A DNA stretch of 64,000 nt from Candidatus Pacearchaeota archaeon (GTDB taxonomy: Archaea > Nanobdellota > Nanobdellia > Pacearchaeales > GW2011-AR1), in assembly GCA_041659265.1 (NCBI GenBank), contig JBAZYP010000001.1, forward strand, positions 192,817-256,816, given 5' to 3'. The notes under the pieces are model-generated. The model made no database searches, was not told the DNA's origin, and saw only the letters and a list, made by a program, of their open reading frames with translations. The position numbers and the translations under genes were made by a program. Numbering within the stretch: position 1 is the first letter of the stretch; each line of letters opens with the position of its first letter. Positions 1,800 to 47,455 of the stretch are shown piece by piece.

Positions 1800-2135
1800 A
1801 TGAAGATAGTGTTGACAGATATGTTCTTAAAAAAGAGACATGAATTCAATGGAGATTTTGAAAAAATATCTATTGGAAGGGGGCTTGAAAATAGTTTAGT
1901 TATTCCAAGTAGTTTGTCTCAGGGGCCTTATTCTGAATTTAGTTCTTTTGTTTCAAGAAAGCATTGTGAGATATTGATACAAAATAGGAAATATTATTTA
2001 AAAGATAATTGCAGTGGAAATGGTACTTTTTTAAATAGGGATTTGATAGGAAATGAACCAAAAGAATTGAAAACTGGAGATTTTATTGGTTTAAGTGATA
2101 ATTATGTTCTAGCTATAGAAATTTACTATAGGTAA
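1800..2135 (+). CDS. Stand-alone FHA-domain protein 1
   Basis: FHA hallmarks in order: 'ISIGRG', 'FVSRKHCEI', 'SGNGTFLN'. The 111-aa protein is essentially the domain alone. Confidence 0.75.
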   Translation: MKIVLTDMFLKKRHEFNGDFEKISIGRGLENSLVIPSSLSQGPYSEFSSFVSRKHCEILIQNRKYYLKDNCSGNGTFLNRDLIGNEPKELKTGDFIGLSDNYVLAIEIYYR

Positions 2136-2162
2136 TTGTTACTAAATAATAGTAACAAAATA

Positions 2163-2178
2163 GAAAGCTTTAAATATA
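2163..2178 (+). promoter_or_regulatory. BRE/TATA-like box (GAAAGCTTTAAATATA)
   Basis: A purine-rich BRE-like AAAG followed by TTTAAATA, centred about 29 nt before the ATG at 2201. The same 16-mer recurs at 41089-41104. Confidence 0.5.
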
Positions 2179-2200
2179 TGTTTTTTCTAATATAATTAAG

Positions 2201-2593
2201 ATGGAATATGTTATAAAATTGATAAATGAGGACTCTTCAAAAAGTCTTGATTTGACTAAATTTCTAGAAGAAAAATCCGAAGTAGTTATTGGAAGGGGTG
2301 AAAATTGTGATGTAAGATTATTAAATGAGTTTGTTTCAAGAAGGCATTGTTCAATAACTTATCATCAACCAAGTTCATATTGTGTTTTACCTGATTTTAT
2401 TAATAGGAAATATTTATTATCAATAAGGGATTTAAATAGTTTAAATGGAACTATTATAAATAATTCTAGAATTTTAGATGATAAACCAATTACTCTAGGT
2501 GAAGGAGATCATATTGGAATTGGTGGTATAGAATATTATGTAAATATTTCAAATAAAGTTAGTTATGATTCTAAAACAAAGGAGATAAAATAA
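2201..2593 (+). CDS. Stand-alone FHA-domain protein 2
   Basis: 'VVIGRGENCDVRL', 'FVSRRHCSI', 'NSLNGTIINN'. Confidence 0.75.
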   Translation: MEYVIKLINEDSSKSLDLTKFLEEKSEVVIGRGENCDVRLLNEFVSRRHCSITYHQPSSYCVLPDFINRKYLLSIRDLNSLNGTIINNSRILDDKPITLGEGDHIGIGGIEYYVNISNKVSYDSKTKEIK

Positions 2594-2594
2594 T

Positions 2595-3056
2595 ATGGAA
2601 AGCAGTTTATTAACATTAACTTTAGGAAATAAAAAATTGATTCTTCCTAGAAGTTGCAAATTATTAACAATTGGAAGAAGTGAGTTAGCTAATATTATTG
2701 TAAATCATCCTCAAGTTTCAAGATTTCATTGTTATATTAATTTTCAAGATGAAAAATGCAATGAAAATGAAATAGCATTATATGATGGAAGTTTATATAC
2801 TGGAAGCCCTAGTTTAAATGGAACTTTTGTTTCATCTGGGTATAAGGATAGATTTCAAATGATAGGTAGTCAAGAAGATAATCTCTCTAAAGGATATATT
2901 ATAGAACCTAATGCAAAAATTAGATTGGGAAGAGAAAATGCACCAGTATTAAAATTAGAATTTAAAGAAGAATCAGTAAATTCTTTAGTTGATTGGAGAC
3001 ATAAGCACAAGGAAGGATATATAAAGAGTTTATTCGGAGGTTTATTTAAAATATAA
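2595..3056 (+). CDS. Stand-alone FHA-domain protein 3
   Basis: 'LTIGRSELANIIV', 'QVSRFHCYI', 'PSLNGTFVS'. It starts 1 nt after the previous stop. Confidence 0.7.
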   Translation: MESSLLTLTLGNKKLILPRSCKLLTIGRSELANIIVNHPQVSRFHCYINFQDEKCNENEIALYDGSLYTGSPSLNGTFVSSGYKDRFQMIGSQEDNLSKGYIIEPNAKIRLGRENAPVLKLEFKEESVNSLVDWRHKHKEGYIKSLFGGLFKI

Positions 3057-3057
3057 T

Positions 3058-3480
3058 ATGGCAAAAAAATTAGAAAAAATTGCTCAAGGAAATGAAAAAG
3101 CTAGATTTATTATTGCTTTACCTAATGTTAATATCGATGTAAGAGAGTATTCAAATCTATCAAAGGTTGGTGGAAGTATAGCTACTACATCTGCAGGAGC
3201 TGTAAGCCAATATCTTTTTAGAGAAGTTAAGAATCCAATAGTTGCTAGAACTATACTTGCAAATTTAAGAGATAGAATTGCTGGAAATGATAATTATGCA
3301 ATGAAATTAGCTGATGAATTTTCAAATGAAGATGGGACAGTAAGAACTGGTAGTGATAAACAAGATTCTGAAGAAATTGAAATATGTTATTATTTATCTG
3401 GAAGATATGGTGGAAATCCTAAATCTTATTTAGAACATTCTAGAAAGTTATTAGAAGAATTTAAAAGATTTGGATATTAA
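3058..3480 (+). CDS. Hypothetical protein, translationally coupled to the FHA triplet
   Basis: A 140-aa ORF that starts 1 nt after the FHA-3 stop. I recognise no motif. Confidence 0.5.
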   Translation: MAKKLEKIAQGNEKARFIIALPNVNIDVREYSNLSKVGGSIATTSAGAVSQYLFREVKNPIVARTILANLRDRIAGNDNYAMKLADEFSNEDGTVRTGSDKQDSEEIEICYYLSGRYGGNPKSYLEHSRKLLEEFKRFGY

Positions 3481-3546
3481 TATTTAACATTAATTTTATT
3501 TTACAATAATCTTATTAACTCTTAATTTATTATTAAATAGAAAAAG

Positions 3547-6500
3547 ATGGTGGAAATTCCAGTTATTAATGTAGATTTGAATGTAGATAAGTTTAAACCA
3601 GAAAATCTGGTTTGGGGTGATAAATATGATAAGAAAAAGGATAAGAAGAAAATCTATAAGATTTTAGCTTATCTTGCTGTAATAGCTGCATTAATTATAT
3701 TCTTTAGATTTGCGCTACTTGCATATTTGTATATAGCTAATTTACCTAAAATAAATAGTTATGATGCAAATATTGAAAGAATAGCTTTAAGTGAAGATGG
3801 AAAACAAGCTTATATTAAATTAACTGGTGGGAATCAAAAAGAGATAGAATCTATAAAATTTATATTTAGAACTAATGAATCTGAATTTATTTATGAAACA
3901 ACAGATGGGATTAAGGAAATTACTTATGAGGATAAGAGATTTTTAACTTATTTTGCTAATCCTGAATATGAAGGAAGTTATGATTATTCTATTAATGCAA
4001 TAGATATGGGTTTAGACAATTTTAAAGGAATAATAAAAGTTGAAGTTTCAATAAAATTTAAAGATGAAAAAACAGGGGAAGTTAAGGAAACTAAAACTAT
4101 TGATAGTTCTAAAAAATCAGATATTAACATTGTAAGAAGTGGAGGATCTGGTTCTGGTGGAGGAGGTGGAGGAGCTGGGGGTAGTGGAGGATCTGGAGGA
4201 ACAAGTGGAAATGAACCTATTACAACATGCAATCCAACTAAAACTTGTTTAAATTATGCTAATCTGTGCGGATCTAGAATGAGTGATGGATGTAATAATA
4301 TTTTAGATTGTTCTGCTAATTGTAAAACTGGAGAAGCCTGTTTGGGTAATTCATGCGTATCAAGTGAAATAAATCTTCCACTAACTTTTGAAACTCCTTA
4401 TAACTTGCCTACTGGTGGGAAAACTTGGTATGTGCATGATACTGGAAATATTAATATAAATGGAATTAATTTACAAGCAACAATTAATAATGCATCTTTG
4501 GGAGATGTTATAATTCTAGATGCAGGGGTTGTATATTATGGTAATTTTTTACTTCCAAATAAGAGTGGAAATGGATGGATATACATTATTTCAAGTAATC
4601 TTTCAAGTATGCCTGAAGGAGATAGAGTTGGTCCAAAAGATTCTATAAATATGCCGAAGATTTTGGCAAATCCTGAGGGCGGATCTTGTTATACTGCGTT
4701 ATTTACATTATTTGAAGCACATAATTATAGGTTATCTGGTATTGAAATCTTGACTGAAGGGTGTGTTTATTCTTTAGTAAGAATGGGATATGATATTAAA
4801 GGTGGAATCTGGAATTCTACTCCTGCAAAGACTATTGAACAACTTCCCTATAATATTACTCTTGATAGATGTTATATTCATTCAATTAATGACAGTGTTA
4901 GATCTAGAATCGGAGTTATAGCTGATGGAAGATATATTGCAATAATTGATTCATATATTTCGAATATTAAGGATTCCGCTGATGCTCAAGCAATATTAAA
5001 TTGGAATGGTTTGGGCCCATTTAAATATGTTAATAATTTTTTAGAATCCTCTGGAGAAAATTTTATGCCTGGAGGCAATGATCCTGCAATAATTGGTCTT
5101 GTACCATCTGATTTTGAAATACGTGGAAATTATTTTTTTAAACCACTTTATTGGAAAGAAAACCATTCTAGTTATAGGGGTTATAATTGGGGAATAAAAA
5201 ATTTATTTGAGATAAAAAATGCTAAAAGGTTGCTTGTTTCTGGAAATATCTTTGAGAATTCTTGGATTGATGCTCAAATGGGTTATGCAATTGTTTTAAA
5301 AGCTTCAAATGATGGTGGTAACGCTAATTGGTCTACTTTTACTGATATGATTTTTCAAGATAATATTATAAAAAATTCAGTTTCAGGAATTATGTTTAGT
5401 GCAAATGAACATTATAATGGTGGAACAACAGAAGGAATAAAAAGAGTAATAATAAAAAATAATCTAATTGATTTTACAAATTCAAATAATAATCTTCTTT
5501 CTGAATTTAATACTGATTTTTTGGTTTCATTTAGGGGTGGAGGGGTAATTGCAAGAGATATCATTGTTGATCATAATACTATGTTATCTCAAAATAATTC
5601 TAAATCTATGATAACTGCAGGCGATAGTTCAAATCAATATGAAAACGTAAGAATTACAAATAATATTTTAAGAAAAGGTTATTATGGATTTAAGGCATCA
5701 AGCACTGCTGAAGGAAATAATAGTGTAAATTATATTACTAATTGTAGTTTTAGAAAAAATTTGATGATTGAAAATATAAATCTGGGAATATATCCCTCTA
5801 ATAATCTTGGAGTTAATGATATGGGTGGAGTCGGTTTTGTTGATTTTATTAATAAAAACTATAGGTTAACTTCTTTAAGTCTTGGAAAAAACAGGGGAAC
5901 TGATGGAAAAGATTTAGGTGCGGATATTGACTCAATTGAGTATGCAACTAGATGCACACTTGATGGGAAGTGCCATACTCAATGCGTACCTCAATGTGCA
6001 AATAAGGAATGCGGTAGTGATGGATGTTATGGAACTTGCGGAAGTTGCGGTAATGGAGAATTCTGTAATTCAAATGGTCAATGTGAAAATAATATTGTGA
6101 ATGAACTAGAACCAGAACTTCCTAGATTTTATGTTGATACAAGTTATGATGAAAGTTATAATCGGCCTGCAGATATTATAGTAAGAAGTGGGGAAAATCT
6201 TCAAGCGGCTCTAGATAGTGTTCAATCTGGACAAATTCTTGAAATTGAAGCAGGAGCTTCATTTATGGGTAATTATGTAATTAGAAATAAAACTGGTAAT
6301 GATTGGATTTATATTCGAAGTTCAAGATATTCTGAACTTCCTGTTGAAGGAAATAGGGTAAATTCAAATGATTCTGATAAAATGGCTAGAATTATTTGTC
6401 CAAATCAATTTAATCCTGCTTTAAAAATAGATCCTGGAGTAAAAAATGTAAGATTAATTGGACTCGATATAACCACTAATTATAGTTTAAGAAATGATGC

Positions 6501-7641
6501 GCAATATGGGGTATTAAGAGTTGCACAAGGCGGAAGTAATAGTTTTATTTCTGAAAATATTATTATTGATAGATGTTATATTCATGGAACTCTTGAAGGA
6601 AATATTCGAGATGGATTAATGTTATATCAAGTTAAGGGGTTTGGATTAATTGATTCATATATTAGTGAAATTCATAGTGTTGGATATGAATCTCATCCAA
6701 TTCATATTTATATAACTCCTGGACCAACTAAAATCAAGAATAATTATATTGAGGGTGCTGGAATAAATTTATTTATTGGAGATAATAATGTAAGTATTAT
6801 TCCTGAAGATATTGAAATAATTGGGAATTATTTTTATAAACCTTTAACTTGGATGATAGGTCATTCTACATATGCTGGAATAAATTGGCTTGTAAAAAAT
6901 CTTTTTGAAATTAAAGCAGGTAGAAGAATATTAGTAAAAGGGAATATTTTTGAAAATGTATGGATACATGCACAACATGGGCAGGTATTTGTTATAACTC
7001 CAAGAGGTGGGGAAATTGAAGATTTGACTATTACAAATAATGTTGCAAGAAATTTTTATAATGGTGTTAATTTTAATAGTGCTGATGTATCAATAAATAG
7101 ATTATTGTTTAAAGATAATTTATTATATCAAACGAGTTTTAATATTTCTCCAACTATAATTCAACTTGCTGGAACTCCTGGAAAATATAATAATGTAAAT
7201 ATTATTCATAATTCTTTTCTTGCGAATCCCGAACATGGTTGGATTGTTTTTAATGGTGCTAGAGAAAATGAAGTAAATAATTTAAATGTTAAAGATAATA
7301 TTGCTATTCATGGAAATTATGGAATCTTTGGAAATACTTTAGGTGTTGGAATTAGGTCTGTAAATTTTTATTCAAATAATTATAATTTTACTCATAATCT
7401 ATTAATAAATAATCCTTATATAAACATGTATCAGGATAATATTACTATTAAAGGAAGTTATGTTAGATTTAATTCTTCAAATCTAGAAAATGTGGGTTTT
7501 ATTGATTATGCAAATAAAAACTATAGACTTAGTCAAACAAGTCCTTATAAAAATCTTGGAAGTGATGGAAAGGATTTAGGGGCTGATATTAATACTCTTG
7601 AAGAAGTAACTAGATGCGCAAAAGATGGCATGTGTAATTAA
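3547..7641 (+). CDS. Giant membrane-anchored surface protein with two tandem parallel beta-helix-like modules
   Basis: Lys-rich tail plus TM helix (ILAYLAVIAALIIFFRFALLAYLYI), a conserved ecto-domain and a Gly hinge (GGSGSGGGGGGAGGSGGSGG). Cys-rich knots precede each of two modules with PbH1-like turns (GNIFENSW, NNIIKNS, RCYIHS, IDSYISNI). Each module ends GxDGKDLGADI. Confidence 0.8.
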   Translation: MVEIPVINVDLNVDKFKPENLVWGDKYDKKKDKKKIYKILAYLAVIAALIIFFRFALLAYLYIANLPKINSYDANIERIALSEDGKQAYIKLTGGNQKEIESIKFIFRTNESEFIYETTDGIKEITYEDKRFLTYFANPEYEGSYDYSINAIDMGLDNFKGIIKVEVSIKFKDEKTGEVKETKTIDSSKKSDINIVRSGGSGSGGGGGGAGGSGGSGGTSGNEPITTCNPTKTCLNYANLCGSRMSDGCNNILDCSANCKTGEACLGNSCVSSEINLPLTFETPYNLPTGGKTWYVHDTGNININGINLQATINNASLGDVIILDAGVVYYGNFLLPNKSGNGWIYIISSNLSSMPEGDRVGPKDSINMPKILANPEGGSCYTALFTLFEAHNYRLSGIEILTEGCVYSLVRMGYDIKGGIWNSTPAKTIEQLPYNITLDRCYIHSINDSVRSRIGVIADGRYIAIIDSYISNIKDSADAQAILNWNGLGPFKYVNNFLESSGENFMPGGNDPAIIGLVPSDFEIRGNYFFKPLYWKENHSSYRGYNWGIKNLFEIKNAKRLLVSGNIFENSWIDAQMGYAIVLKASNDGGNANWSTFTDMIFQDNIIKNSVSGIMFSANEHYNGGTTEGIKRVIIKNNLIDFTNSNNNLLSEFNTDFLVSFRGGGVIARDIIVDHNTMLSQNNSKSMITAGDSSNQYENVRITNNILRKGYYGFKASSTAEGNNSVNYITNCSFRKNLMIENINLGIYPSNNLGVNDMGGVGFVDFINKNYRLTSLSLGKNRGTDGKDLGADIDSIEYATRCTLDGKCHTQCVPQCANKECGSDGCYGTCGSCGNGEFCNSNGQCENNIVNELEPELPRFYVDTSYDESYNRPADIIVRSGENLQAALDSVQSGQILEIEAGASFMGNYVIRNKTGNDWIYIRSSRYSELPVEGNRVNSNDSDKMARIICPNQFNPALKIDPGVKNVRLIGLDITTNYSLRNDAQYGVLRVAQGGSNSFISENIIIDRCYIHGTLEGNIRDGLMLYQVKGFGLIDSYISEIHSVGYESHPIHIYITPGPTKIKNNYIEGAGINLFIGDNNVSIIPEDIEIIGNYFYKPLTWMIGHSTYAGINWLVKNLFEIKAGRRILVKGNIFENVWIHAQHGQVFVITPRGGEIEDLTITNNVARNFYNGVNFNSADVSINRLLFKDNLLYQTSFNISPTIIQLAGTPGKYNNVNIIHNSFLANPEHGWIVFNGARENEVNNLNVKDNIAIHGNYGIFGNTLGVGIRSVNFYSNNYNFTHNLLINNPYINMYQDNITIKGSYVRFNSSNLENVGFIDYANKNYRLSQTSPYKNLGSDGKDLGADINTLEEVTRCAKDGMCN

Positions 7642-7743
7642 GTAATTTTAAAATCTTTTTTAATAATAGAAACAATTTATTTAAATTGTATTATCTTTTC
7701 AATAATCTTATTAAGTCTTAATCTTTTATAAAATTGAAAAAAG

Positions 7744-10700
7744 ATGGTTGAAATTCCGATAATTAATATAGAAGTTCCTAAACCTGAGAATCTGGTTTGG
7801 GGAGAAAATTATTCTGAAAAGAAAGATAAGAATAAAATTTATAAAATTTTAGCTTATCTAGCAGTTATAGCTGCATTAATCATATTCTTTAGATTTGCAT
7901 TACTTGCTTATTTGTATATTGCTAATTTACCAAAAATAAATAGTTACGATGCAAATATAGAAAGGATTGCATTAACTGATGATGGAAAACAAGCTTTTAT
8001 TAAATTAACGGGTGGAAATCAAAAAGAGATTGAATCTATTAAATTTATATTTAGGACAAATGAATCAGAATATATTTATGAAACTAAAGATGGAATAAAA
8101 GAAATAACCTATGAAGATAAACGTCTCTTAAGTTATTTTGCTCATCCGGAATATGAAGGAAGTTATGATTATACAATTAAAGCTTTAGATGTTGGACTTG
8201 ATAGTTTTAAGAGAATAATAAAAGTTGAAGTTTTGATAAAATATAAAGATGAAAAAAGTGGAGAGATAAAAGAAACAAAGATTGTTGATAGTACAAAAAA
8301 ATCAGATATTAATGTTGTAAGAAGTGGTGGATATGGTGGAGGAGGTGGAGGATCTGGTGGTAGTGGAGGATCTGGAGGAACAAGTGGAAATGAACCTATT
8401 ACAACATGCAATCCAACTAAAACTTGTTTAAATTATGCTAATCTGTGCGGATCTAGAATGAGTGATGGATGTAATAATATTTTAGATTGTTCTGCTAATT
8501 GCAAATCTGGAGAAAAATGTTTAAGTGGTTCTTGTGTATCGAATGAAATTGAACTTCCTGAAACTTTTGAAGTTCCATATATATTACCTGCTGGTGGAAA
8601 AACCTGGTATATTAATGATAGTGGAAATATTAATACCAATGGAGTTAATTTTCAGAATGCTCTTGTTAATGCAAGTTTAGGTGATGTAATTGTTTTACAA
8701 GCAGGTGTAACTTATTATGGGAATTTTAGGTTACCAAATAAAACTGGAAATGGTTGGTTATATATTATTTCTTCGGAACTAGGAAACTTGCAAGAAGGAA
8801 ATAGGGTAGATTCAAAGGATTCTATTCATATGCCTAAAATTAGTGCATATCCTGATGGAACAAATTGTTATACTGCAATGATAAATGAATGGGGAGCCCA
8901 TAATTATAGGTTTTCAGGAATTGAATTTGTAACAGATGGATGTGTATATAATTTAATTTTACTTGGATATCATTATTTTAGGTTAAATGAACCTATTTGG
9001 AATATTACTGGACCGGGTCATGTTGCTGATACAATTGAAAAATTGCCTTATAATATTACTTTTGATAGATGTTATTTGCATTCTACAAATGAAAGCGCAA
9101 AATCAAGAACGGGTATAATGCTTGATGGTAGATATATGGCTGTTATTGATTCCTATTTGTCAAATTTTAAGGATAGAAGTGATTCTCAAGCAATAAATGT
9201 TTATAGTGGTCCTGGACCTTATAAAATTGTCAATAATTATCTAGAATCAACTGGTGAAAATTTTATGTCTGGTGGAACTGATCCAAACATTTTAAATTCT
9301 GTTCCATCTGATTTTGAAATTATTGGAAATTATTTTTATAAGCCGGATAAATGGAATTCGAATAGTCCTGAATATAAAAACATAAGCTGGTGTATTAAAA
9401 ATTTGTTTGAACTTAAAAATGCACAAAGATTAATTGTTTCAGGAAATATATTTGAAAATAATTGGGGAATTTGTGGTGGACAAAGAGCAACTGCAATTGT
9501 AATAACTCCTAGAAATCAAAATGGCATGGCAAATTGGTCAGTTGTTCAAGATTTAATTTTTACAAATAATATAATTAGAAATTTTGGTTATGCTATGCGA
9601 GTTTTAAGTAATGATGATCTTCATAAATCTGAAATTACAAAAAGAATTGAAATAAATAATAATATTTTTGATGTTATTAATCATAATTATTATACTGGAT
9701 ATGGAATTGGATTTTCTTCTCCTTATAATAATACTCCATCTTATAATGTAGTTGTAAAAAATAATATATTTTTACATAATTATACTGGTGGAAGTTTTAT
9801 GTATGTTGGATTTGATCCATTAAAAATTACTCATTATTCGGTTCTTGATAATTTTACATATGAAAATAATATTGCAACACATGCAAATTATGGATTATTT
9901 GGAGATAATATTGGTACTGGAAATGATGCGATAAATCATTATGTTGATAATTATATTTTTAGAAGAAATTTATTAATTAATCGTCCAATTGATAGAACTT
10001 ATTCTTATTGGATAACGCATTTCTCAAGTTCATATCCTCCTGATAATTTAATGGTTCATAATATAAGTGAGGTAGGTTTTATGGATTATAATAATCAAAA
10101 TTATAGGCTTTTATCAATAAGCCCTGGAAAAAATAATGGAACTGATGGGAAAGATATTGGACCTAATTATGATACCATTGATGAAGCAACAAGATGCACA
10201 CTTGATGGTCAGTGTTATATGCAATGTTTTCCTAATTGTTCGGGAAAGGCTTGTGGTAATGATGGATGTAGTGGAAGTTGTGGAGTATGCAATAATGGAG
10301 AAAGTTGTATAGATTATAATTGTGAAATAAATTCTAGTAATTCAGATAAGATATGGTTTTTCGATTCATTCGAAGGAATGCTTCCAAAGGCTTGGAATTC
10401 TTCTATATGGGGTGAAGCATGGGACAATGATTCGGTTATCAATGTAAATAGTGAAATAGATTCATTAGGAAATTCTATAGGTGCTGCACTTAGCGGGGGA
10501 AATCAATCTTATAGGCAATGGTGGAATGGGCAAAATGATATTGGTAGTTGGTCAACTGCTGGCGGATTATATTCAGATTTTTCAAGAATTACTCAAATGC
10601 CTGATAAACTTGGAGAAAATGATACATTTTATTTAAGTTATCATATTAAATATGATCCTCAATTTTTTTGGGGAGATACAACCGGGTTAAAACAGATTAT

Positions 10701-11136
10701 TATTCAAAGTAATTCAAGAGTTGATGATAGATTGTATATTGGTCTTGGGGGATGGGGTGCTGGATATGTAGAACCCTTTTTCCAAGTAGCAGATGGAAAT
10801 CCTAGACATTTATATTCAAATATTAATAATATTAATGGAACACCTTATATTATGCCATTAGGAATCTGGGTAAATTTTGAATGGTTTGTTAAAATCTCTA
10901 ATGAGACAAATAAAAAAGGTATTCTTTATGGTTGGGTAAACAATGAATTACTTTGGAATTATACAGATATTGCAACTATTGAATCTGGAGAGTATGTTCA
11001 AATGATGATTAATCCTACATTTAATCCTCCAACATATGGTGAAAGAGATGATAATTTATCAGAAGTTCCTCAGAATTTTACTCAAAGAAGATATTGGGAT
11101 AATTTTTATTTTGGAAGTCAAAGAAGAGTAGGATAA
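7744..11136 (+). CDS. Paralogous surface protein: shared N-terminal cassette, one beta-helix module and a distinct C-terminal domain
   Basis: The first ~225 aa are near-identical to the 3547 product. The same Cys knot and beta-helix motifs are present (RCYLHS, IDSYLSNF, GNIFENNW). After a second Cys knot comes an unrelated W/G-rich ~290-aa domain. Confidence 0.8.
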   Translation: MVEIPIINIEVPKPENLVWGENYSEKKDKNKIYKILAYLAVIAALIIFFRFALLAYLYIANLPKINSYDANIERIALTDDGKQAFIKLTGGNQKEIESIKFIFRTNESEYIYETKDGIKEITYEDKRLLSYFAHPEYEGSYDYTIKALDVGLDSFKRIIKVEVLIKYKDEKSGEIKETKIVDSTKKSDINVVRSGGYGGGGGGSGGSGGSGGTSGNEPITTCNPTKTCLNYANLCGSRMSDGCNNILDCSANCKSGEKCLSGSCVSNEIELPETFEVPYILPAGGKTWYINDSGNINTNGVNFQNALVNASLGDVIVLQAGVTYYGNFRLPNKTGNGWLYIISSELGNLQEGNRVDSKDSIHMPKISAYPDGTNCYTAMINEWGAHNYRFSGIEFVTDGCVYNLILLGYHYFRLNEPIWNITGPGHVADTIEKLPYNITFDRCYLHSTNESAKSRTGIMLDGRYMAVIDSYLSNFKDRSDSQAINVYSGPGPYKIVNNYLESTGENFMSGGTDPNILNSVPSDFEIIGNYFYKPDKWNSNSPEYKNISWCIKNLFELKNAQRLIVSGNIFENNWGICGGQRATAIVITPRNQNGMANWSVVQDLIFTNNIIRNFGYAMRVLSNDDLHKSEITKRIEINNNIFDVINHNYYTGYGIGFSSPYNNTPSYNVVVKNNIFLHNYTGGSFMYVGFDPLKITHYSVLDNFTYENNIATHANYGLFGDNIGTGNDAINHYVDNYIFRRNLLINRPIDRTYSYWITHFSSSYPPDNLMVHNISEVGFMDYNNQNYRLLSISPGKNNGTDGKDIGPNYDTIDEATRCTLDGQCYMQCFPNCSGKACGNDGCSGSCGVCNNGESCIDYNCEINSSNSDKIWFFDSFEGMLPKAWNSSIWGEAWDNDSVINVNSEIDSLGNSIGAALSGGNQSYRQWWNGQNDIGSWSTAGGLYSDFSRITQMPDKLGENDTFYLSYHIKYDPQFFWGDTTGLKQIIIQSNSRVDDRLYIGLGGWGAGYVEPFFQVADGNPRHLYSNINNINGTPYIMPLGIWVNFEWFVKISNETNKKGILYGWVNNELLWNYTDIATIESGEYVQMMINPTFNPPTYGERDDNLSEVPQNFTQRRYWDNFYFGSQRRVG

Positions 11137-16631: not shown

Positions 16632-18338
16632 TTATCTTCCTCCTCCGCCTCCACCACCCATTCCTCCTGAACCAGACCCACTAAATCCCCCTGAACTATG
16701 GCTTGAATGAGAGGCTCTTGAACTTACTGCAAAATTTGTTATGGAGGTATTCATGTTAGAGAAAGTTTTCATTGTTTTTATATCAATTATACCTTGATTA
16801 TTTAATTCTTTTAAGACTTGTTTAGCTACACCTAATGCTGAACCATATACTAGATATTCTTCCCAAAGGATTACTCCTTTATGAGATGATTTTTTTATTG
16901 TTAATGAATAACTTAACCATTTTTTAAAAGATTGCCATTTTTTATATTCAATATAATAATCTTCATTATATCTTATTAAAAATGGATTTTTATAGGAAAA
17001 TAATGCTACAAGAATTATTGAAAATATAGATAATATTAATAAAGGGATTAAAAAAGTAACAAAAGAAAAAATTGTTAATAAAACCATCCATCCAAAAAAA
17101 CCATCTGAACCTTTTTTATTTATATATTTTTTTGATTCTTTTTTTATTAAATCTTTTAATTCATCAAATAAGTCACTTATTTCTTTTTTTTCTGAATAAC
17201 TTCTTGAAGGACTATTAATATCAAAATAATTATCAGAAGAAATTGATTTATCTGATTCTTTTAATTTTTTTAAAATTTTATAAAATTTTTTTTCTATTTG
17301 ATCAAGATTAGAGGGTTCATTATTCAACTTAACTAAAAATTTGTCCTTTAAGATTTTATCAATAATTTTTATATCTATAATTTTTCTTCTATAGAAATCA
17401 AAAATCATTGTTGAAAAAAAATTATTATTAATATCTCCAAAGGGGTGATTGAAAAAAGCAGCAACTTCCCAAGGTTTTCTTTTTACAGGATAATCAGATA
17501 GTTGATCTGGAATATCTGTTTCATAATTTTCTTTACCGTATTTTTTCCAAAAATATATCAATAAAATAAATGGAATTAAATGTAAAAGAAAAACAATTAA
17601 TGAAATTAGGATGGCTATAAAAATTCTTTTTTTACTTAATTCATCAAATTCGAAATCATCTTGGATTATTATTTCCAGATTAGAAGTATTTCCTTCATAA
17701 GGAATATAAATAATTACATAATCTTTTGAATTGTAATTTGAAATTGAAATATGTTCTCCTTTAATAAAAAGCGTTGAATCTTTGTTTAAATCTACATGCC
17801 TATTTTTTGCATAAGGAATAAATTTAATATAATTTTTATTTTTAATATTAAAGATTGTTTTTGGGTTTAAACGATAGGTTGATTCAATAATATAAGTATT
17901 ATCTGGAAAAAATCCAAAATCATTTCCAAAAGTGCAACCATATTCATTATTTTCAGTATAATCAAAACAAATATTTTTTTTAGAAAAATCAGGTTCACTA
18001 TAGCAATAATCTTCTGTTTTAAAGTAGGATTTTCCGGTTTTACAACTAACATTTAAAATTGAGATTGTATCTTTATCAAAATTATCTTTTGAATAAATAT
18101 TAGTTTCAAAATCTCTAAAGAGGGTATGATAATCTTCATCAGGATTGAAATATAATTTTTCATTAATGATTGCTCCATTAATATCTAAATGGGCTGAATA
18201 AAAATTAAACTCATTATAATTATTTGATATTTTTCCGGTTATAATCGAATAAACAAAATTTATGGAAAGAGTTCCTAATAAAATTCCTGCTAATATTAGA
18301 ATTATTGAAATTATAATTAATTTATTTATCTCTTTCAT
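16632..18338 (-). CDS. DUF2207-like membrane protein
   Basis: N-terminal TM helix, a large ecto-domain, central TM helices and the characteristic C-terminal 'SSGGFSGSGSGGMGGGGGGGR' tail. Confidence 0.6.
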   Translation of the reverse strand: MKEINKLIIISIILILAGILLGTLSINFVYSIITGKISNNYNEFNFYSAHLDINGAIINEKLYFNPDEDYHTLFRDFETNIYSKDNFDKDTISILNVSCKTGKSYFKTEDYCYSEPDFSKKNICFDYTENNEYGCTFGNDFGFFPDNTYIIESTYRLNPKTIFNIKNKNYIKFIPYAKNRHVDLNKDSTLFIKGEHISISNYNSKDYVIIYIPYEGNTSNLEIIIQDDFEFDELSKKRIFIAILISLIVFLLHLIPFILLIYFWKKYGKENYETDIPDQLSDYPVKRKPWEVAAFFNHPFGDINNNFFSTMIFDFYRRKIIDIKIIDKILKDKFLVKLNNEPSNLDQIEKKFYKILKKLKESDKSISSDNYFDINSPSRSYSEKKEISDLFDELKDLIKKESKKYINKKGSDGFFGWMVLLTIFSFVTFLIPLLILSIFSIILVALFSYKNPFLIRYNEDYYIEYKKWQSFKKWLSYSLTIKKSSHKGVILWEEYLVYGSALGVAKQVLKELNNQGIIDIKTMKTFSNMNTSITNFAVSSRASHSSHSSGGFSGSGSGGMGGGGGGGR

Positions 18339-20202: not shown

Positions 20203-22812
20203 TTAGTCAGCTGATTCTGCTTTAATTGCTTTTGGTGCTTCACCACCATGCCAAGTAAAACGAGGCCTTATTCTTATTGGATATAATCTTTCAGAATTAT
20301 CATCTAATAAAATGGCACTTCCTTTTAAATCTGGAAGATTGTTCATTGATTTTGAAATTCCTTCTAATAAATAACTCTGCATCATTGTATTAAGTGCAAT
20401 AAGGTCGTCTTTGTTAGTTAATCTATGGGAGATAACTATATCTGACTGAGTCATAACATCCCTATGAATCACTCCTGGTTGTTGGGTTGCTAAAACCATT
20501 GAAATTCCTGGTTGCCTTCCTTCTCTAAGTAATTGGATTAAGGCATTTGTAGCAGGAGTTTTTTCATGCATTGGCAAGAATTCATGGGCTTCATCTAAAA
20601 AAAGCCAGACAAGAGGCATTTCTTTTTTTTCTTCATAAGAGGAATTTATTCCATGATGAATTGATTCTATTTCTTCTTTTTTTCTAGCAAGAATTCTTTG
20701 GTCAAATAATTTTTTTGAAACAAGACCAATTATTAATCCTCTTACATTAAATTTTGCTGTAGATGAATAACATGAAAGATCTAGAACTGTTGTTTTACCT
20801 GCTGTTATTAAATCATCAATTTTTGTACCTTCTTCACCTGAACTAGCAAATACTTTCCAGGATTTAGCGGCTTGAAAAAGTGCCATAGCTGATTTTTTGT
20901 TTTCATCATTTGTATCCTTGTCTTCTCTTATCATATTAATTATATCATCTAAATCAAATATTCCTTTTTTTGCAAGATTATCAATTGTTTTTTGAATTAA
21001 AACTGATACAGGAGAGATCATTTCAAGTTCAAATATGGATAACCAATCTTCTATTGAAAGTTCGGCTGCACTTAATGCAAATTTCTTGTCAACAGGAATA
21101 TCTCTTTTTTCATATTCATGAAAATAACCAGCTGGTGCCCAAACTGTAACTGGAAGATTTTGGGTCTTTAAATCCCAGCCTTCTAATAAATCTGATTCTT
21201 TTTCATTTCTATATTTCATTGTCCAGAATATACCCATAGTATCAAAAATTATTGGGGCTATATTTTTTCTTGCTTCTTCTGGAAGATTTGATAATTCTTC
21301 AGCCAAGACTCCTATTGTGTAACTATTATGCACAATAATATTATTTGCTACAAAATTATGGTTTTCAGGAACGCAAATATCATAGACCTTAAAATTTCCT
21401 TCTAAAGATTCCATTGAGATTATTTCATCCCAATAAATATCGGATTCTGCAAGAAGTTTTAGTGGGTTATTTCTTTCAATTTCTGCTATTTGAAGTAAAT
21501 TTTGTCTTGAAGGAGAATAACGAATCCTTTCTCTTATCGATTTAGGATATTTATATCCAATAGCTCTACCAATTTCTGCCCAGTTATTTGGTTTAAAGGT
21601 TTCCCATATTTCTTTTGGAATAGTATCGAGATTCGGATTTCTTATTTTTGATAAAATATCTGATTTAGCAATAAAAACTTTTTCTTGTTTTTTCCCGAAA
21701 AAGCCTATTTCTTCTATAAATTTTACAACATTAATTGAATTTAAAACTAATTCATAAGATGTGAATTTTTTCATTTTAATCTTAATATTCTTTGTTCTTA
21801 ATTTTGATAAAATTCCGAATCTTAATAATAAATTTTGGATTTGTTTTATTAGTTTTTTTGAAGATGATGAATAAGAAATCTGCCATTTATTTTCTGAAGA
21901 ATAAATACTTCCATCACAACTAAATAAACGGTTTAAAAATAAAGCTAATAATTCTTTTTTTAGTCTTAAGATATTTTGGGAAAGTTCTTTTTCAATTGAA
22001 AGTTTTCCAAAGATGCCCTCTCTTTCGATAAGTTTTCTAATACTTCTTTTTTTAACTATATTCTTATTTCCTTTTATAAAATGGCCTTTATCATCTCTTG
22101 ATAAATTTGTTTCAAGGATTTTTGTTTTATATTTCTTTTCAGATATTCTAAAATTGCATTTCCCTTCATTTATTAATTCTAAAGAAGAATCAAAACGATT
22201 CAATGAGTCTTTAAATTCATTAATTATTTTTTCATCATTATTTGAAAATAAGACTACTTTTTTTGTATGTCCTTCAGCAATAAGATATGCTAGTAATTTT
22301 ATTTCATCTTCTGACATTATATTATTCCCAAATGAAGGGATAATTCTTGGAGTAGCAATTCTTGAACCTAATATTAGTTCACTTGCATTTTTCCATCCTT
22401 TTATTGTTAATAGTGGATGTTCTGGAGTAAGTTTTATTTCTTTACCACTTCTTAATTTTATTTTTAAAAGTTTATTAACTTCCCTAGAGAAAAATTCTGT
22501 TTTTTCTGAATTTTGAACTTTAAGTTTATTATTTAAACTAATTATTTTTTCATTATTAAATTCAATATCTTTTATTGGCATAAGGGAACCATCAGACATA
22601 CTTATTAAGGTATCTTCATGAAGACATTTTCCCCCACCTCTTTTACCAGCAATTAATATAACATGAGTTCTAGCAATATCTAGCCAAATTTTATTGGATA
22701 GGGAAGTGTAATTTCCCATAGTAACATAGCCTTTGCCAATATAAACAAGACCTCTGTTGCCAAATTTTTTCTTATCGTATTTATCTCTACCTATTATAAT
22801 ATCATATGGCAT
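20203..22812 (-). CDS. HerA/DUF87-like P-loop ATPase interrupted by an intein
   Basis: Joining the exteins restores Walker A 'GKRGGGK|SYTIG'. Also present are Walker B 'VWLFLDEAHEF' and 'REGRQPGISMVLATQQP'. Confidence 0.8.
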   Translation of the reverse strand: MPYDIIIGRDKYDKKKFGNRGLVYIGKGYVTMGNYTSLSNKIWLDIARTHVILIAGKRGGGKCLHEDTLISMSDGSLMPIKDIEFNNEKIISLNNKLKVQNSEKTEFFSREVNKLLKIKLRSGKEIKLTPEHPLLTIKGWKNASELILGSRIATPRIIPSFGNNIMSEDEIKLLAYLIAEGHTKKVVLFSNNDEKIINEFKDSLNRFDSSLELINEGKCNFRISEKKYKTKILETNLSRDDKGHFIKGNKNIVKKRSIRKLIEREGIFGKLSIEKELSQNILRLKKELLALFLNRLFSCDGSIYSSENKWQISYSSSSKKLIKQIQNLLLRFGILSKLRTKNIKIKMKKFTSYELVLNSINVVKFIEEIGFFGKKQEKVFIAKSDILSKIRNPNLDTIPKEIWETFKPNNWAEIGRAIGYKYPKSIRERIRYSPSRQNLLQIAEIERNNPLKLLAESDIYWDEIISMESLEGNFKVYDICVPENHNFVANNIIVHNSYTIGVLAEELSNLPEEARKNIAPIIFDTMGIFWTMKYRNEKESDLLEGWDLKTQNLPVTVWAPAGYFHEYEKRDIPVDKKFALSAAELSIEDWLSIFELEMISPVSVLIQKTIDNLAKKGIFDLDDIINMIREDKDTNDENKKSAMALFQAAKSWKVFASSGEEGTKIDDLITAGKTTVLDLSCYSSTAKFNVRGLIIGLVSKKLFDQRILARKKEEIESIHHGINSSYEEKKEMPLVWLFLDEAHEFLPMHEKTPATNALIQLLREGRQPGISMVLATQQPGVIHRDVMTQSDIVISHRLTNKDDLIALNTMMQSYLLEGISKSMNNLPDLKGSAILLDDNSERLYPIRIRPRFTWHGGEAPKAIKAESAD
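21325..22626 (-). mobile_element. 434-aa intein with LAGLIDADG homing-endonuclease domain, inserted in the Walker A loop
   Basis: It starts at Cys63 ('CLHEDTLISM', codon 22626-22624) and ends 'NIIVHN' (Asn496, 21327-21325), followed by the +1 Ser. The endonuclease blocks are 'LLAYLIAEGH' and 'LNRLFSCDGSI'. The boundary codons were checked on the sequence. Confidence 0.85.
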
Positions 22813-23031: not shown

Positions 23032-23205
23032 ATCTTTAAAATAATTAGATATAACTTTTAAATAAATGTATATAAATAGTAGAGATATTCGTATTATTTA
23101 GTAGAATTTTATGAAGTTCAATTTATTTAATTATTAATATTTATATTTGATAAAATCTAAAAATTATCTGTTAAATATTAAATTTTTTTGAATAGAGTTG
23201 AAATT

Positions 23206-23223
23206 CGAAAGGTTTTTAAATAC
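23206..23223 (+). promoter_or_regulatory. BRE/TATA-like box (CGAAAGGTTTTTAAATAC)
   Basis: Centred about 25-28 nt before the ATG at 23242. It lies inside the TTG-initiated 5' extension given in the ORF track. A near-identical box is at 43705-43720. Confidence 0.5.
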
Positions 23224-23241
23224 ATGAATTTTAAATCCAGC

Positions 23242-24279
23242 ATGGAAAAAAAGTCAAAGTCTGAATCTGGAGAAAATAATTTTCAAGAAACTGCTGAAGA
23301 AAGAGCTGCTGATTCAAATGATAGTTCTAAATCAAGTGGAAAGATATGGATGATAGCTACTTTAGTTTTAGCTGTTGGTTTAGTTATTATATTAGGTGCA
23401 TTATATTCAGGTTATAGTTTACCAGGATTATCTGGAGCTACTGGCAATTTTGTTAAAGGAGATGAAGCAGGTGGAAAACTTGTTGAATTCTTAAATACAA
23501 GAACTGGTGGTGGAGTAACTTATATTTCATCTGAAGATTTGGGTGGAAACTTATATCAAGTTACTGTTGCTTATCAAGGTCAAAATGTTCCTGTTTTTAT
23601 AACAAAAGATGGAAAATATTTTGTTCAAGGTGCTATTCCTTTAGAAGCTGGTGCTGAAGATCCTACTCAACAAACACCAACTACTCCTGAAACACCACAA
23701 GAAATCGCAAAATCTGATAAACCAGCTGTAGAATTATTTGTAATGACTCATTGTCCTTATGGAACACAAGCTGAAAAAGGATTTATTCCTGTTGTTAATA
23801 CTTTATCAAAGAATGCTGATGTAAAAGTTAGATTTGTACATTATTTCATGCATGGTGATAAGGAAGAACAAGAAACTTATAATCAATTATGTATAAGAGA
23901 AGAACAATCTGATAAGTATATGACTTATTTAAGTTGTTTCTTAGAAGCTGGAGATACTGCTGGTTGCTTAACTAAAGCAAATATCGATAAAACTAAATTA
24001 AATACATGTTTATCTAATAGTGCAGCTAAAGCAAAAGAATATTACAAGAAAGATTCAGAATTATCACAAAAATATGGAGTAGAAGGAAGTCCAACTTTAG
24101 TTATAAATGGAGTTATTGCTAACTCTGGAAGAGATTCAGCTAGTTTATTAAAGACAGCATGTTCTGGTTTTAATACTGAACCATCTGGATGTAGTCAGAA
24201 GTTATCAACTGCTTCACCTGCTCCTGGTTTTGGAACTGCTGATGCACCTGCTGGAAGCGCAACTGATGCTCAGTGCTAA
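23242..24279 (+). CDS. Membrane-anchored DsbA/thioredoxin-fold thiol-disulfide oxidoreductase
   Basis: One TM helix (IWMIATLVLAVGLVIILGALY) and the redox motif 'THCPYGTQAE'. I moved the start from 23188 (TTG) to the ATG at 23242 because the promoter-like box lies between the two. Confidence 0.6.
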   Translation: MEKKSKSESGENNFQETAEERAADSNDSSKSSGKIWMIATLVLAVGLVIILGALYSGYSLPGLSGATGNFVKGDEAGGKLVEFLNTRTGGGVTYISSEDLGGNLYQVTVAYQGQNVPVFITKDGKYFVQGAIPLEAGAEDPTQQTPTTPETPQEIAKSDKPAVELFVMTHCPYGTQAEKGFIPVVNTLSKNADVKVRFVHYFMHGDKEEQETYNQLCIREEQSDKYMTYLSCFLEAGDTAGCLTKANIDKTKLNTCLSNSAAKAKEYYKKDSELSQKYGVEGSPTLVINGVIANSGRDSASLLKTACSGFNTEPSGCSQKLSTASPAPGFGTADAPAGSATDAQC

Positions 24280-44305: not shown

Positions 44306-44469
44306 TTAGATAATTTTAAACACTACTAATGCAATATAAATCTGAACAATAAGAATTAACTTCGTTAGATTACCTTAAAGACGACTAATGCAATATAAAT
44401 CTGAACAATAAGAATTAACTTCGTTAGATTACCTTAAAGACGACTAATGCAATATAAATCTGAACAATA
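44306..44469. repeat. 59-bp tandem repeat (~2.8 copies) duplicating the 3' end of the CPBP protease gene
   Basis: The ACTAAT phase marker occurs at 44325, 44384 and 44443. The full copies at 44325-44383 and 44384-44442 are identical by eye. The last partial copy is the real gene end. Confidence 0.8.
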
Positions 44470-45104
44470 TCTACAAGGATATGAATTAACCAGCATGAAA
44501 AAAGGTCTTTATATTTTTCAAAAATATAACTTGCAAATAAGGAATAGATTATTAGTCCTAATGTAACTATTATTGTAATTGGAAGATTGAACCAAGAATA
44601 ATAAAAAATTACATGGTGAAATGAAAAAGCAAGACCTGTTAATAGGTATGAACTTATTCTATTTTTTTTGTTTAATTCTTTAAAAATAAAACCTCTCCAG
44701 AAGAATTCTTCTAGAATTGAATTAATAAAAATAATATATAATCCAATAAATATAATATTAGTCGAATTAATATCTGCAGATGATTTAAGATTATTTGCTA
44801 TATTATCAAGATTTAAATAATTTTTAAAAATCAAAAATGCTGACAAATAAATTAATGATAAGAATAAACCTAATAATAACACTTTAAAAAAATTCTTTTT
44901 GAATATTTTATAATGGAAGTCTTTTTTTATTATATTTAATAATGGTTTTTTCAAAATAAAATATCCATAAAAGATGGGAAAAAGGAATATTAGTTTATAA
45001 ATTGAAGAAATGAAATAATTTGAATTAAGAAAATTATGAACTAATAATAGGATTATTAGGGGTAATATTAATAATACATATATCAATAAATTTTTTTTAT
45101 TCAT
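44424..45104 (-). CDS. CPBP-family (CAAX-type) intramembrane protease
   Basis: 'EEFFWRGF', 'FSFHH' and 'HILVD' motifs in a multi-TM protein. Confidence 0.75.
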   Translation of the reverse strand: MNKKNLLIYVLLILPLIILLLVHNFLNSNYFISSIYKLIFLFPIFYGYFILKKPLLNIIKKDFHYKIFKKNFFKVLLLGLFLSLIYLSAFLIFKNYLNLDNIANNLKSSADINSTNIIFIGLYIIFINSILEEFFWRGFIFKELNKKNRISSYLLTGLAFSFHHVIFYYSWFNLPITIIVTLGLIIYSLFASYIFEKYKDLFSCWLIHILVDIVQIYIALVVFKVI

Positions 45105-46420: not shown

Positions 46421-47335
46421 ATGAAAATTAAGTTAAAAAAAGGTAAACAAAGAGAATTAATTCTTTTAGCTAAAAATGATAAAAACTGGAAAGAATTTGC
46501 AAAGTTAGTTAATATTTCTGAAAAATATTTATGTAACGATTTAAAGAATGAAAAAATATTAATTTCAGAAATGCTATATTTGAATCTTTGTAAAATTTCA
46601 AATAAAAATTTTGATGAATTTATTATTGAAAGATTAGATAATAATTGGGGAAAATCAAAAGGAGGAAAAATCTCTAGAGGAAATACTAAAGATTTTAAAG
46701 AGCCAAAAGAGTCTTTAGAATTAGCTGAATTAATAGGAATAATTCTTGGCGATGGTCATGTTGAAAAATTAAAGATCGGTTCAAAAATAAGATGTTATTC
46801 CATTGTTGTTACTGGTGATTCTAGACATGATAAAAAGTATTTAATAAAATATGTTAATAATCTATTTAAAAAATTATTTAATGAAAATGGGAGAATTCTT
46901 TATTCTAAGGATAAAAATAGCATCTATATTAAATTACATGGTAAGAAAATTGTAGATTTTATAGAAAGTAAAGGTGTTTTTGGAGGTAATAAAAAAAGAA
47001 ATAATCAGGGTATACCTAAATGGATTCTTATAAATGATTCTTATTTAAAAGCAACTTTACGTGGTTTAATTGATACTGATGGATGTATATATTATATTTC
47101 TAAAAATAATAGAAATTTAAGAATATCGTTTACGAGTTATATTCCTAATTTAATGAATGATGTAAGAAATTCATTTTTAAAATTAGGTTTTAATCCTTCT
47201 GAAATTATAAGATGTAAAGATATAACCATTAGTAGAAAAGAAGATATTAAAAAATACTTGAAAGAAATCGGTTTTTCAAATGATAAACATTTAAAAAGAT
47301 ATCAAAATTTAGTTCAATATGCCCCTATCGTCTAG
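46421..47335 (+). CDS. Free-standing double-motif LAGLIDADG homing endonuclease
   Basis: Motifs 'LAELIGIILGDGHV' and 'LRGLIDTDGCIY'. The last four codons (APIV) and the TAG stop lie inside tRNA-Glu. Confidence 0.85.
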   Translation: MKIKLKKGKQRELILLAKNDKNWKEFAKLVNISEKYLCNDLKNEKILISEMLYLNLCKISNKNFDEFIIERLDNNWGKSKGGKISRGNTKDFKEPKESLELAELIGIILGDGHVEKLKIGSKIRCYSIVVTGDSRHDKKYLIKYVNNLFKKLFNENGRILYSKDKNSIYIKLHGKKIVDFIESKGVFGGNKKRNNQGIPKWILINDSYLKATLRGLIDTDGCIYYISKNNRNLRISFTSYIPNLMNDVRNSFLKLGFNPSEIIRCKDITISRKEDIKKYLKEIGFSNDKHLKRYQNLVQYAPIV

Positions 47336-47394
47336 CTGGCCAAGGATTTAGCCTTCTCAAGGCTGCGACCCGGGTTCGAATCCCGGTGGGGGCA
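47321..47394 (+). tRNA. tRNA-Glu (anticodon CUC)
   Basis: Hand fold: acceptor GCCCCTA/TGGGGGC, D stem GTCT/GGAT (two G-U pairs), anticodon arm TAGCC-TTCTCAA-GGCTG, T arm CCGGG-TTCGAAT-CCCGG, discriminator A. Confidence 0.85.
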
Positions 47395-47455
47395 TATAAA
47401 ATAAAAATAATAATTTTAGAGAATATTATATAAAGATATTTTATTCTTTATATAA

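Follow-up and report, generated by a model that had tools for sequence, protein, structure and literature searches.

Three genes in one stretch of archaeal DNA encode proteins that begin almost alike and end differently, which raises the question of what kind of proteins these are and how a constant start came to be joined to varied continuations. The stretch, called the window in the following, comprises 64 kb of a contig of Candidatus Pacearchaeota archaeon and has a GC content of 26%. It encodes the archaeal FEN1, the small and large subunits of RFC, TYW2/Trm5 and three tRNAs, and contains no rRNA gene. From this archaeal gene content and from the naming of the family proteins as Candidatus Pacearchaeota proteins we conclude that the window belongs to the chromosome of a Candidatus Pacearchaeota metagenome-assembled genome (MAG), and thus of a member of the DPANN archaea. 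The three genes were confirmed as open reading frames (ORFs) on the forward strand: gene A (3547–7641, 1364 aa), the adjacent tandem gene B (7744–11136, 1130 aa), and gene C (27159–30023, 954 aa, protein P0121). Genes for FEN1, RFC and tRNA modification as well as purine and sugar-nucleotide genes are their neighbours. Our best explanation, which we regard as probable, is that A, B, C and two further paralogues make up a multigene family whose products are surface proteins anchored in the membrane and display a repertoire for the recognition or degradation of glycans.

A sequence-only reading of the window had proposed a conserved N-terminal anchor fused to different payloads. The anchor part, here termed the N-unit, comprises aa 1–197 in A (3547–4137), aa 1–193 in B (7744–8322) and aa 1–198 in C (27159–27752). 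Its amino acid identity according to BLAST is 89% between A and C, 82% between A and B, and 79% between B and C (81% for B and C in a MAFFT alignment), with nucleotide identities of 88, 83 and 84%. Exactly three copies were found in the window by tblastn. The survey for paralogues elsewhere in the genome, which the same reading had suggested, yielded two more on the same 257-kb contig, P0157 and P0158, which are NCBI hypothetical proteins of Candidatus Pacearchaeota archaeon (MFA5855825 and MFA5855844) with the locus tags WC867_00570 and WC867_00665. Hence there are five paralogues in the genome, and this archaeon has at least five large surface proteins with the same anchor.

Downstream of the N-unit the three genes are organized as follows, all features being on the forward strand. 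In A a Gly/Ser hinge (aa 198–221, 4138–4209) is followed by Cys knot 1 with 8 Cys (4222–4359), beta-helix module 1 (4369–5982), Cys knot 2 (5983–6132), which was located by its Cys positions and is of the CxxxCxxKxCGxDGCxGxCGxC type, and beta-helix module 2 (6154–7641). Gene B contains a hinge with Cys knot 1 (8323–8538), a beta-helix (8539–10221), and a second Cys knot together with a W/G-rich C-terminal domain (10222–11136, the domain itself at aa ~900–1130). In C a Gly/Ser/Asn hinge and an N/D/C-rich knot with 8 Cys (27753–28019) precede a payload consisting of a middle domain, a beta-helix and a C-terminal domain (28020–30023). Each knot of A, B and C has 8 or 10 Cys. The domain order read from the sequence thus agrees with the BLAST comparison and the Cys positions.

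The claim that the payloads differ after the hinge was borne out for C throughout, and for A and B in their C-terminal parts. Apart from one weak beta-helix match of 25% identity (E 2e-4), no similarity between the post-hinge part of C and those of A and B could be detected. A and B, on the other hand, are homologous up to about aa 890 with 58% identity. Only beyond this point does A continue with the second knot and beta-helix and B with its W/G-rich C-terminal domain, which has no similarity to A or C. Nor is the hinge marked by a sharp step between A and B: the hinge end and knot 1 are their best-conserved DNA, and identity decays gradually through the beta-helix. Module 2 of A is 36% identical to module 1 of both A and B and represents an old internal duplicate of module 1. 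The motif of Cys knot 2 of A also occurs in P0122, in P0157 and in a metagenome contig described below (L003).

The N-unit defines a larger family. When 1.84 billion representative proteins were scanned in full by HMMER with the N-unit profile, 96 clusters were obtained, of which 72 had E<1e-10; A, B and C score 391–413 bits. In nearly all clusters the N-unit starts within about 60 residues of the N-terminus (the latest starts are at residues 114–127 in P0224 and P0238), and protein lengths lie between about 100 and 4914 aa. A hydrophobic or transmembrane (TM) segment directly precedes the domain in nearly all members, and in most of them a G/S hinge and then 8–12 Cys follow. The ~130-aa beta domain before the hinge shows the conserved pattern I..L.GG..I..I.F.F......Y.T..G...Y.I, and nine columns are nearly invariant in a broad family alignment. 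A second TM segment at the extreme C-terminus, with a basic tail, was seen in P0161, P0164, P0168, P0169, P0176, P0178 and P0188, among others; such members may be tethered at both ends.

Neither Pfam nor NCBIfam contains a family matching the N-unit, and no description of it was found in the literature searched. The N-unit is therefore an anchor module new to the libraries searched, although its modular use follows a known principle. A profile search from a narrow alignment located at least two related loci in reference genomes, both in Woesearchaeota MAGs. As the named members and these two loci all come from Pacearchaeota or Woesearchaeota MAGs, the N-unit appears to be a lineage-specific domain family. 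Within the genome studied here the units are 79–96% identical to each other versus 25–37% for most units of other genomes; the exception is a partial unit of P0159, from another Pacearchaeota MAG, with 67–74%. A word-index protein search with the N-unit returned no match, which is misleading in view of the 96 clusters found by HMMER, the window's own proteins included. That search missed A, B and C for the N-unit and for the beta-helix of A but returned C for the payload of C, so that its negatives are unreliable for this family. Single-sequence searches of the PDB gave matches to Gly/Ser linkers only.

The N-unit of A was modelled with AlphaFold2 (AF2) on the basis of a 46-sequence alignment. 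The model (mean predicted local distance difference test score, pLDDT, of 82.5) shows a helix at aa 33–64 (3643–3738) and the strands of a beta-sandwich at aa 73–196. With this model Foldseek retrieved generic Ig-like domains only. The best match was 4kdv, a bacterial Ig-like adhesin domain (E 6e-4, target-normalised TM-score 0.57, 8% identity), and Fabs, FN3 domains and the Ig-like domains of Kir channels were also found. The ecto-domain (aa 70–197, 3754–4137) was thus modelled as an Ig-like beta-sandwich, with a resemblance at the level of the fold only. The helix is preceded by a Lys-rich stretch (aa 1–32), predicted to be cytoplasmic. According to the positive-inside rule for membrane orientation, this stretch implies an N-in, C-out topology. 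A cleaved Sec-type signal peptide and an archaeal class III (pilin) signal do not agree with the tail of about 30 aa and the position of the helix at aa 33–64; inspection of the N-terminus by eye revealed no pilin-like motif (no dedicated predictor was run).

That A, B and C are surface proteins is supported, as far as can be judged from their sequences, by the Lys-rich tail before the TM helix, by the even-numbered Cys knots and by an enrichment of N-glycosylation sequons, which amount to 1.5–2.7 per 100 aa versus 0.84 in the housekeeping proteins of the window. Between the paralogues a DsbA/thioredoxin-like protein is encoded (23188–24279), a candidate for the extracellular formation of the disulfide bonds in the Cys knots.

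As to the payloads, the sequence-only reading had recognized parallel beta-helices of the kind typical of polysaccharide lyases, hydrolases and adhesins and had asked for profile searches and structure prediction. The structural part of this check was positive. In B, aa ~266–826 were predicted by AF2 as a confident beta-helix with regular short strands (pLDDT mostly >90, in blocks 80–98), and AF2 and Foldseek together identify the right-handed parallel type of the fold. Foldseek found 83 PDB matches for this beta-helix at E≤0.001, and the best 50 of the 83 are beta-helix glycosidases, lyases, an epimerase and tailspikes. Among these neighbours are the GH136 lacto-N-biosidase, the Det7 and HK620 tailspikes, PL6 alginate lyases, GH91, RbmB, GH28 and AlgE4, with E values from 6e-8 to 1e-4 and identities of 10–13%; all of them act on glycans. 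The sequence profile of the payload reaches PL6 (6kfn, 7dmk, 7o79) over 30–140 positions only, in the cap region (E 1e-6 to 3e-4), and the model of B matches PL6 in Foldseek at E ~5e-7. The payloads thus include right-handed beta-helices that, with the support of these models, resemble polysaccharide lyases, glycosidases and tailspikes.

The beta-helix module shared by A and B has 911 relatives at E≤0.001, of which the best are 47–48% identical. All named ones are bacterial (Planctomycetota, Blastocatellia, Deltaproteobacteria). Many homologues with about 40% identity carry PF13229, fused to FN3, CBM6, PKD or dockerin domains. In an alignment of the module 28 columns are invariant, with a high share of K, E, N, R and D, which would fit an enzyme without proving one. 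For C there is one close payload relative, P0122, which is 53% identical over the whole payload; remoter homologues (25–35% identity) carry PF22842 (Pel9A-like) and PF13229, and the profile of the C payload matches GH120 and PL6 caps in the PDB. The payloads of 48 other family members carry Beta_helix (14), Laminin_G_3 (10) and NosD (6) domains and, further, MopE-type Cys motifs and disintegrin-like, Ig, GH114, subtilase, cohesin, LRR, NHL and PKD domains.

The smaller domains gave less. The C-terminal domain of B, the middle and C-terminal domains of C and the knots alone returned nothing useful from Pfam even at E<5, and NCBIfam gave no match either. C and its isolated segments likewise had no match in Pfam, including PF22842. 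Run without an alignment, AF2 left the knots and the C-terminal domain of B unmodelled, with a pLDDT of <50 for the latter.

From these observations a mechanism can be outlined. The N-unit would act as a signal-anchor, with its Lys-rich tail in the cytoplasm and one TM helix across the membrane, and the Ig-like beta-sandwich next to the membrane would be a common stalk or docking module. The flexible Gly/Ser hinge and the disulfide-bonded Cys knots would hold the payload at a distance from the cell. The payloads, mostly right-handed beta-helices plus accessory domains, would bind or cut polysaccharides, and the likely role of the proteins would be attachment to, or digestion of, the surface of a partner cell or an environmental polysaccharide. 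In the course of evolution the N-unit has repeatedly been joined, at the hinge, to payloads of unrelated kinds, and within this genome it is kept nearly constant mainly by strong purifying selection, with occasional gene conversion between paralogues in addition. Of this outline the data show the architecture, the family, the fold classes, the pattern of selection and the conversion tracts; topology, display on the surface, glycans as targets and a link to symbiosis are inferred.

DPANN archaea are presumed to spend their lives attached to other cells, and the molecules that make the contact are barely known. The N-unit provides a searchable marker for the surface repertoire displayed by Pacearchaeota and Woesearchaeota. 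This repertoire appears to be dominated by glycan-active folds with bacterial named relatives, which are testable candidates for attachment or for the digestion of a partner's surface.

Several points weigh against a membrane-anchored, glycan-directed repertoire. The Foldseek scores beneath the Ig-like assignment are weak (E 6e-4, TM-score 0.57). The N-unit is not always the sole anchor, as a further TM segment at the C-terminus is present in about 14 of the 96 family representatives, and cleavage of the anchor after export is possible. A, B and C have no Pfam match at E<0.1, PF13229 included. No catalytic residues can be assigned in the beta-helices, which may therefore serve for binding alone. 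The bacterial origin of the named relatives of the A/B payload would fit acquisition by transfer and is silent on the present target. Finally, the organism is uncultivated and all conclusions were drawn from its sequence and from models. That a host surface is the target, as the sequence-only reading had it, we only infer; no enzyme activity or family membership can be assigned.

How, then, was the N-unit kept so constant? The synonymous divergence (dS) of the N-unit is 0.91 between A and B, 0.48 between A and C, and 0.52 between B and C, and the ratio of nonsynonymous to synonymous divergence (dN/dS) is 0.09, falling to 0.03 in the TM and proximal half. For the beta-helices of A and B dN/dS is 0.34 at the same dS of 0.91. 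A dS of the unit as high as that of the payload argues that the paralogues are old and that strong purifying selection, and not recent duplication, is the main reason for the constancy of the N-unit. Such selection suggests a common partner or constraint.

In addition, there are traces of recombination. A and B share an identical tract of 143 nt (4180–4322) that begins in the hinge of A and extends into Cys knot 1; the next longest identical run has 25 nt. Within the tract dS is 0.03 versus 0.91 in the flanks. Between aa 30 and about aa 375 the identity of P0157 and P0158 is 100%; it falls to about 25% at a switch at aa ~375–390, and yet the two differ in the type of their first 20 aa. These first 20 aa occur as two types in the five units, one in A, C and P0157 and the other in B and P0158. 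For the last 40 aa of the unit there are again two types, one in A and C and the other in B, P0157 and P0158. As the groupings of these blocks are incompatible, a single tree cannot yield the pattern. Moreover, dS between A and C is lower than between A and B despite the unrelated payload of C. Local gene conversion between the paralogues, as seen in the A/B tract and in the mosaic blocks of the five units, is thus real. Elsewhere, the units of P0191 and P0192 are identical over about 130 aa but part from each other before the unit ends, so that mosaic units are found beyond this genome as well.

Within the family, pairs of units that are 60–94% identical are often followed by payloads without detectable similarity. 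P0122 presents the reverse case: its payload is of the C type and stands behind a different TM segment and linker, yet the hinge and knot are of the same kind. Dissimilar payloads on similar units, together with P0122, show that payloads have been joined at the hinge more than once. In gene A the hinge appears to be a recurrent recombination boundary, where both the conversion tract with B and the divergence of the metagenome contig described next are situated.

We considered whether payloads are actively swapped at this boundary. The unit and the GGN-repeat hinge would then serve as homology handles, and recombination between paralogues or strains would replace the payload and change the surface specificity within populations, similar to the modules of phage tailspikes. 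The contig L003 (JGI Ga0172379_10053877, 3487 bp), found by a degenerate pattern scan of metagenome contigs, seems to represent such an event. Its first 2053 nt are identical to positions 2066–4118 of the window and comprise two FHA genes, the gene of a 140-aa protein and the unit of A. Three synonymous differences follow, and from 4119–4148 onward the contig diverges from A. Its post-hinge payload has 93–96% amino acid identity to P0157/P0158 in the knots and 25–46% beyond them, so that a P0157/P0158-like payload is found at locus A behind the unit of A. The start of the A/B conversion tract in the same hinge, the loss of identity between P0157 and P0158 at aa ~375–390 and the payload of C behind another anchor in P0122 point in the same direction. 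However, L003 is the only contig to show a swap, and its assembly is fragmentary. Contigs of this strain from other assemblies (L006, L009 and L011) are 100% identical to the window and stop at the paralogous genes or inside them: L006 at 10409 within B, L009 45 nt into the unit of C and L011 about 24 nt into the unit of A. The latter two break at the unit and do not read through it. Two origins of L003 would look alike: it may be a genuine variant of locus A, or it may result from a mis-join with a sixth paralogue or with the gene of a related strain. (Another contig from the same scan, L002, was discarded as a chance match, having 55% GC and no relationship to the family.) In addition, with a dS of 0.5–0.9 most copies of the unit have not taken part in recent exchange, and all copies are complete genes with a start of their own, no silent cassettes being seen. 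Active payload swapping is thus suggested but unproven, and we judge it rather unlikely. The sequence-only reading had envisaged a cassette system that diversifies the tools directed at a host surface. The fusion of one anchor to varied payloads stands; the active diversification is no more than a possibility in view of the unit dS of 0.5–0.9, the purely local recombination and the possible mis-join in L003.

A bolder version takes the N-unit and the GGN hinge as a dedicated platform for module exchange, by which populations of Pacearchaeota and Woesearchaeota recombine glycan-targeting payloads, including captures from bacteria, onto a fixed stalk and so change their partner or substrate specificity, L003 being a true locus variant. 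We hold this to be doubtful. If it were true, the system would be a cellular counterpart of tailspike swapping in phages, and a hinge that is a real exchange point would show how small genomes vary their surface specificity.

Conversely, A, B and C could simply be members of an old paralogue family, shaped by duplication, domain accretion and purifying selection on a constrained anchor, with incidental recombination signals. The equal dS of unit and payload between A and B and the low dN/dS of the unit are in line with this, as are the tandem arrangement of A and B, their homology over about 890 aa and the housekeeping chromosome context, in which no recombinase, reverse transcriptase or mobile element lies beside the genes. 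This explanation leaves the 143-nt identical tract and the incompatible block patterns among the five units unaccounted for. It is also at odds with the lower dS of A and C, whose payloads are unrelated, and with units so much more alike within the genome than to most units of other genomes, even allowing for P0159. We consider it improbable as a full account.

Still less likely, in our estimate, is that the N-unit is a cleaved export signal or pro-region and that the payloads are free extracellular enzymes feeding on polysaccharide. It is true that the bacterial payload relatives P0001 and P0123 have ordinary signal peptides and that the payload folds are those of polysaccharide-degrading enzymes. 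But a folded 130-aa domain under very strong purifying selection and a 32-residue helix after a 30-aa tail are unlike a cleaved signal peptide, and spacers such as the hinge and the knots would suit a payload that stays tethered.

Three further candidates were dismissed. Diversity-generating retroelements are common in Pacearchaeota and Woesearchaeota. The genes were rejected as targets of such an element, as the 33 ORFs scanned included no reverse transcriptase (about ten ORFs of at least 150 aa and all shorter ones were left out) and no pair of template and variable repeats was present; the only long direct repeats in the window are the paralogous gene segments themselves. A phage region or phage tailspike was excluded by the N-terminus with its TM helix and Ig-like domain, by the housekeeping neighbours and by the lack of any phage gene among the ORFs scanned, and antigenic variation from silent cassettes by the lack of an invertase among these ORFs and of a phase-variable repeat or silent cassette in the window.

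The preferred explanation, a family of anchored surface proteins with glycan-directed payloads, invites comparison with known systems. The tailspikes of the phages P22, Sf6, HK620, CUS-3 and Det7 combine a small conserved N-terminal attachment domain with exchangeable beta-helix glycan cutters and undergo swapping of whole modules (PMC5380687). The proteins described here follow the same logic, and the payload of B has the HK620 and Det7 tailspikes among its best structural matches. In contrast to the virion-binding dome of a tailspike, attachment here would be by a TM helix and an Ig-like domain in the cell membrane; furthermore, A, B and C lie amid archaeal housekeeping genes, and their identity to tailspikes is only 10–13%. 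In Nanoarchaeota, 'hypothetical external' proteins with a single N-terminal TM helix show a raised density of non-synonymous single-nucleotide polymorphisms, evolve fast and have been proposed to mediate host contact (PMC6142677). They are likened to our proteins by description, as DPANN surface proteins with one N-terminal TM anchor; that study gives polymorphism densities and not a shared anchor domain or domain shuffling.

With the beta-helix carbohydrate-active enzymes (PL6, GH136, GH28, GH91, RbmB, AlgE4) the payloads share the fold and the N-terminal cap motif; the payload family also has many invariant polar residues, as an active-site groove would require. No single family stands out, the profile matches cover only 30–140 residues, and A, B and C reach no Pfam threshold. 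The polymorphic toxins CdiA and Rhs and the variable lipoproteins of Mycoplasma consist of a conserved N-terminal and a variable C-terminal part. They resemble the proteins described here in the conserved N-terminal delivery or anchor part, the unrelated C-terminal parts and the recombination at the junction. The difference is that the payloads here are not toxins, that no immunity genes lie downstream, and that neither an invertase nor a phase-variable repeat nor a silent cassette was seen.

The three genes also share short sequence strings at their starts, as the sequence-only reading had stated. In the window AAAAAGATGGTNGAAATTCC occurs only at 3541, 7738 and 27153, at the starts of A, B and C, and in none of 100 shuffled sequences. 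CAATAATCTTATTAASTCTTAAT is confined to 3504 and 7700, before A and B, and two copies were found in none of 100 shuffles. The copy of A (3504–3526, forward strand) is A/T-rich and TATA-like and occupies positions −43 to −21 relative to the ATG; its twin before B (7700–7722, forward strand) matches exactly. This upstream string may be a putative archaeal TATA-type promoter for a nearly leaderless transcript.

Directly upstream of A, head-to-tail and on the same strand, there are two genes for FHA-domain proteins (2201–2593 and 2595–3056), followed by that for the 140-aa protein (3058–3480), which has no Pfam match. A third FHA gene (1800–2135) further upstream is seen in L011. A link of the FHA proteins to the cytoplasmic tail of the anchor would be pure speculation. 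Between the paralogue loci a DUF2207-type membrane protein of 568 aa is encoded (16632–18338, reverse strand).

The window has some other features of note. An 869-aa ORF (20203–22812, reverse strand) contains an intein with a LAGLIDADG homing endonuclease, and the ORF of a free-standing LAGLIDADG endonuclease (46421–47335) has one end within or beside the tRNA-Glu(CTC) gene (47320–47395). A 59-nt unit is repeated three times in tandem at 44306–44482 (92% and 75% identity), its last copy overlapping the 3′ end of a gene for an Rce1-like CAAX protease (44424–45104, reverse strand). Finally, a 48-nt tandem duplication (62866–62961) is located inside a 451-aa ORF (62344–63699, reverse strand) without a Pfam match.

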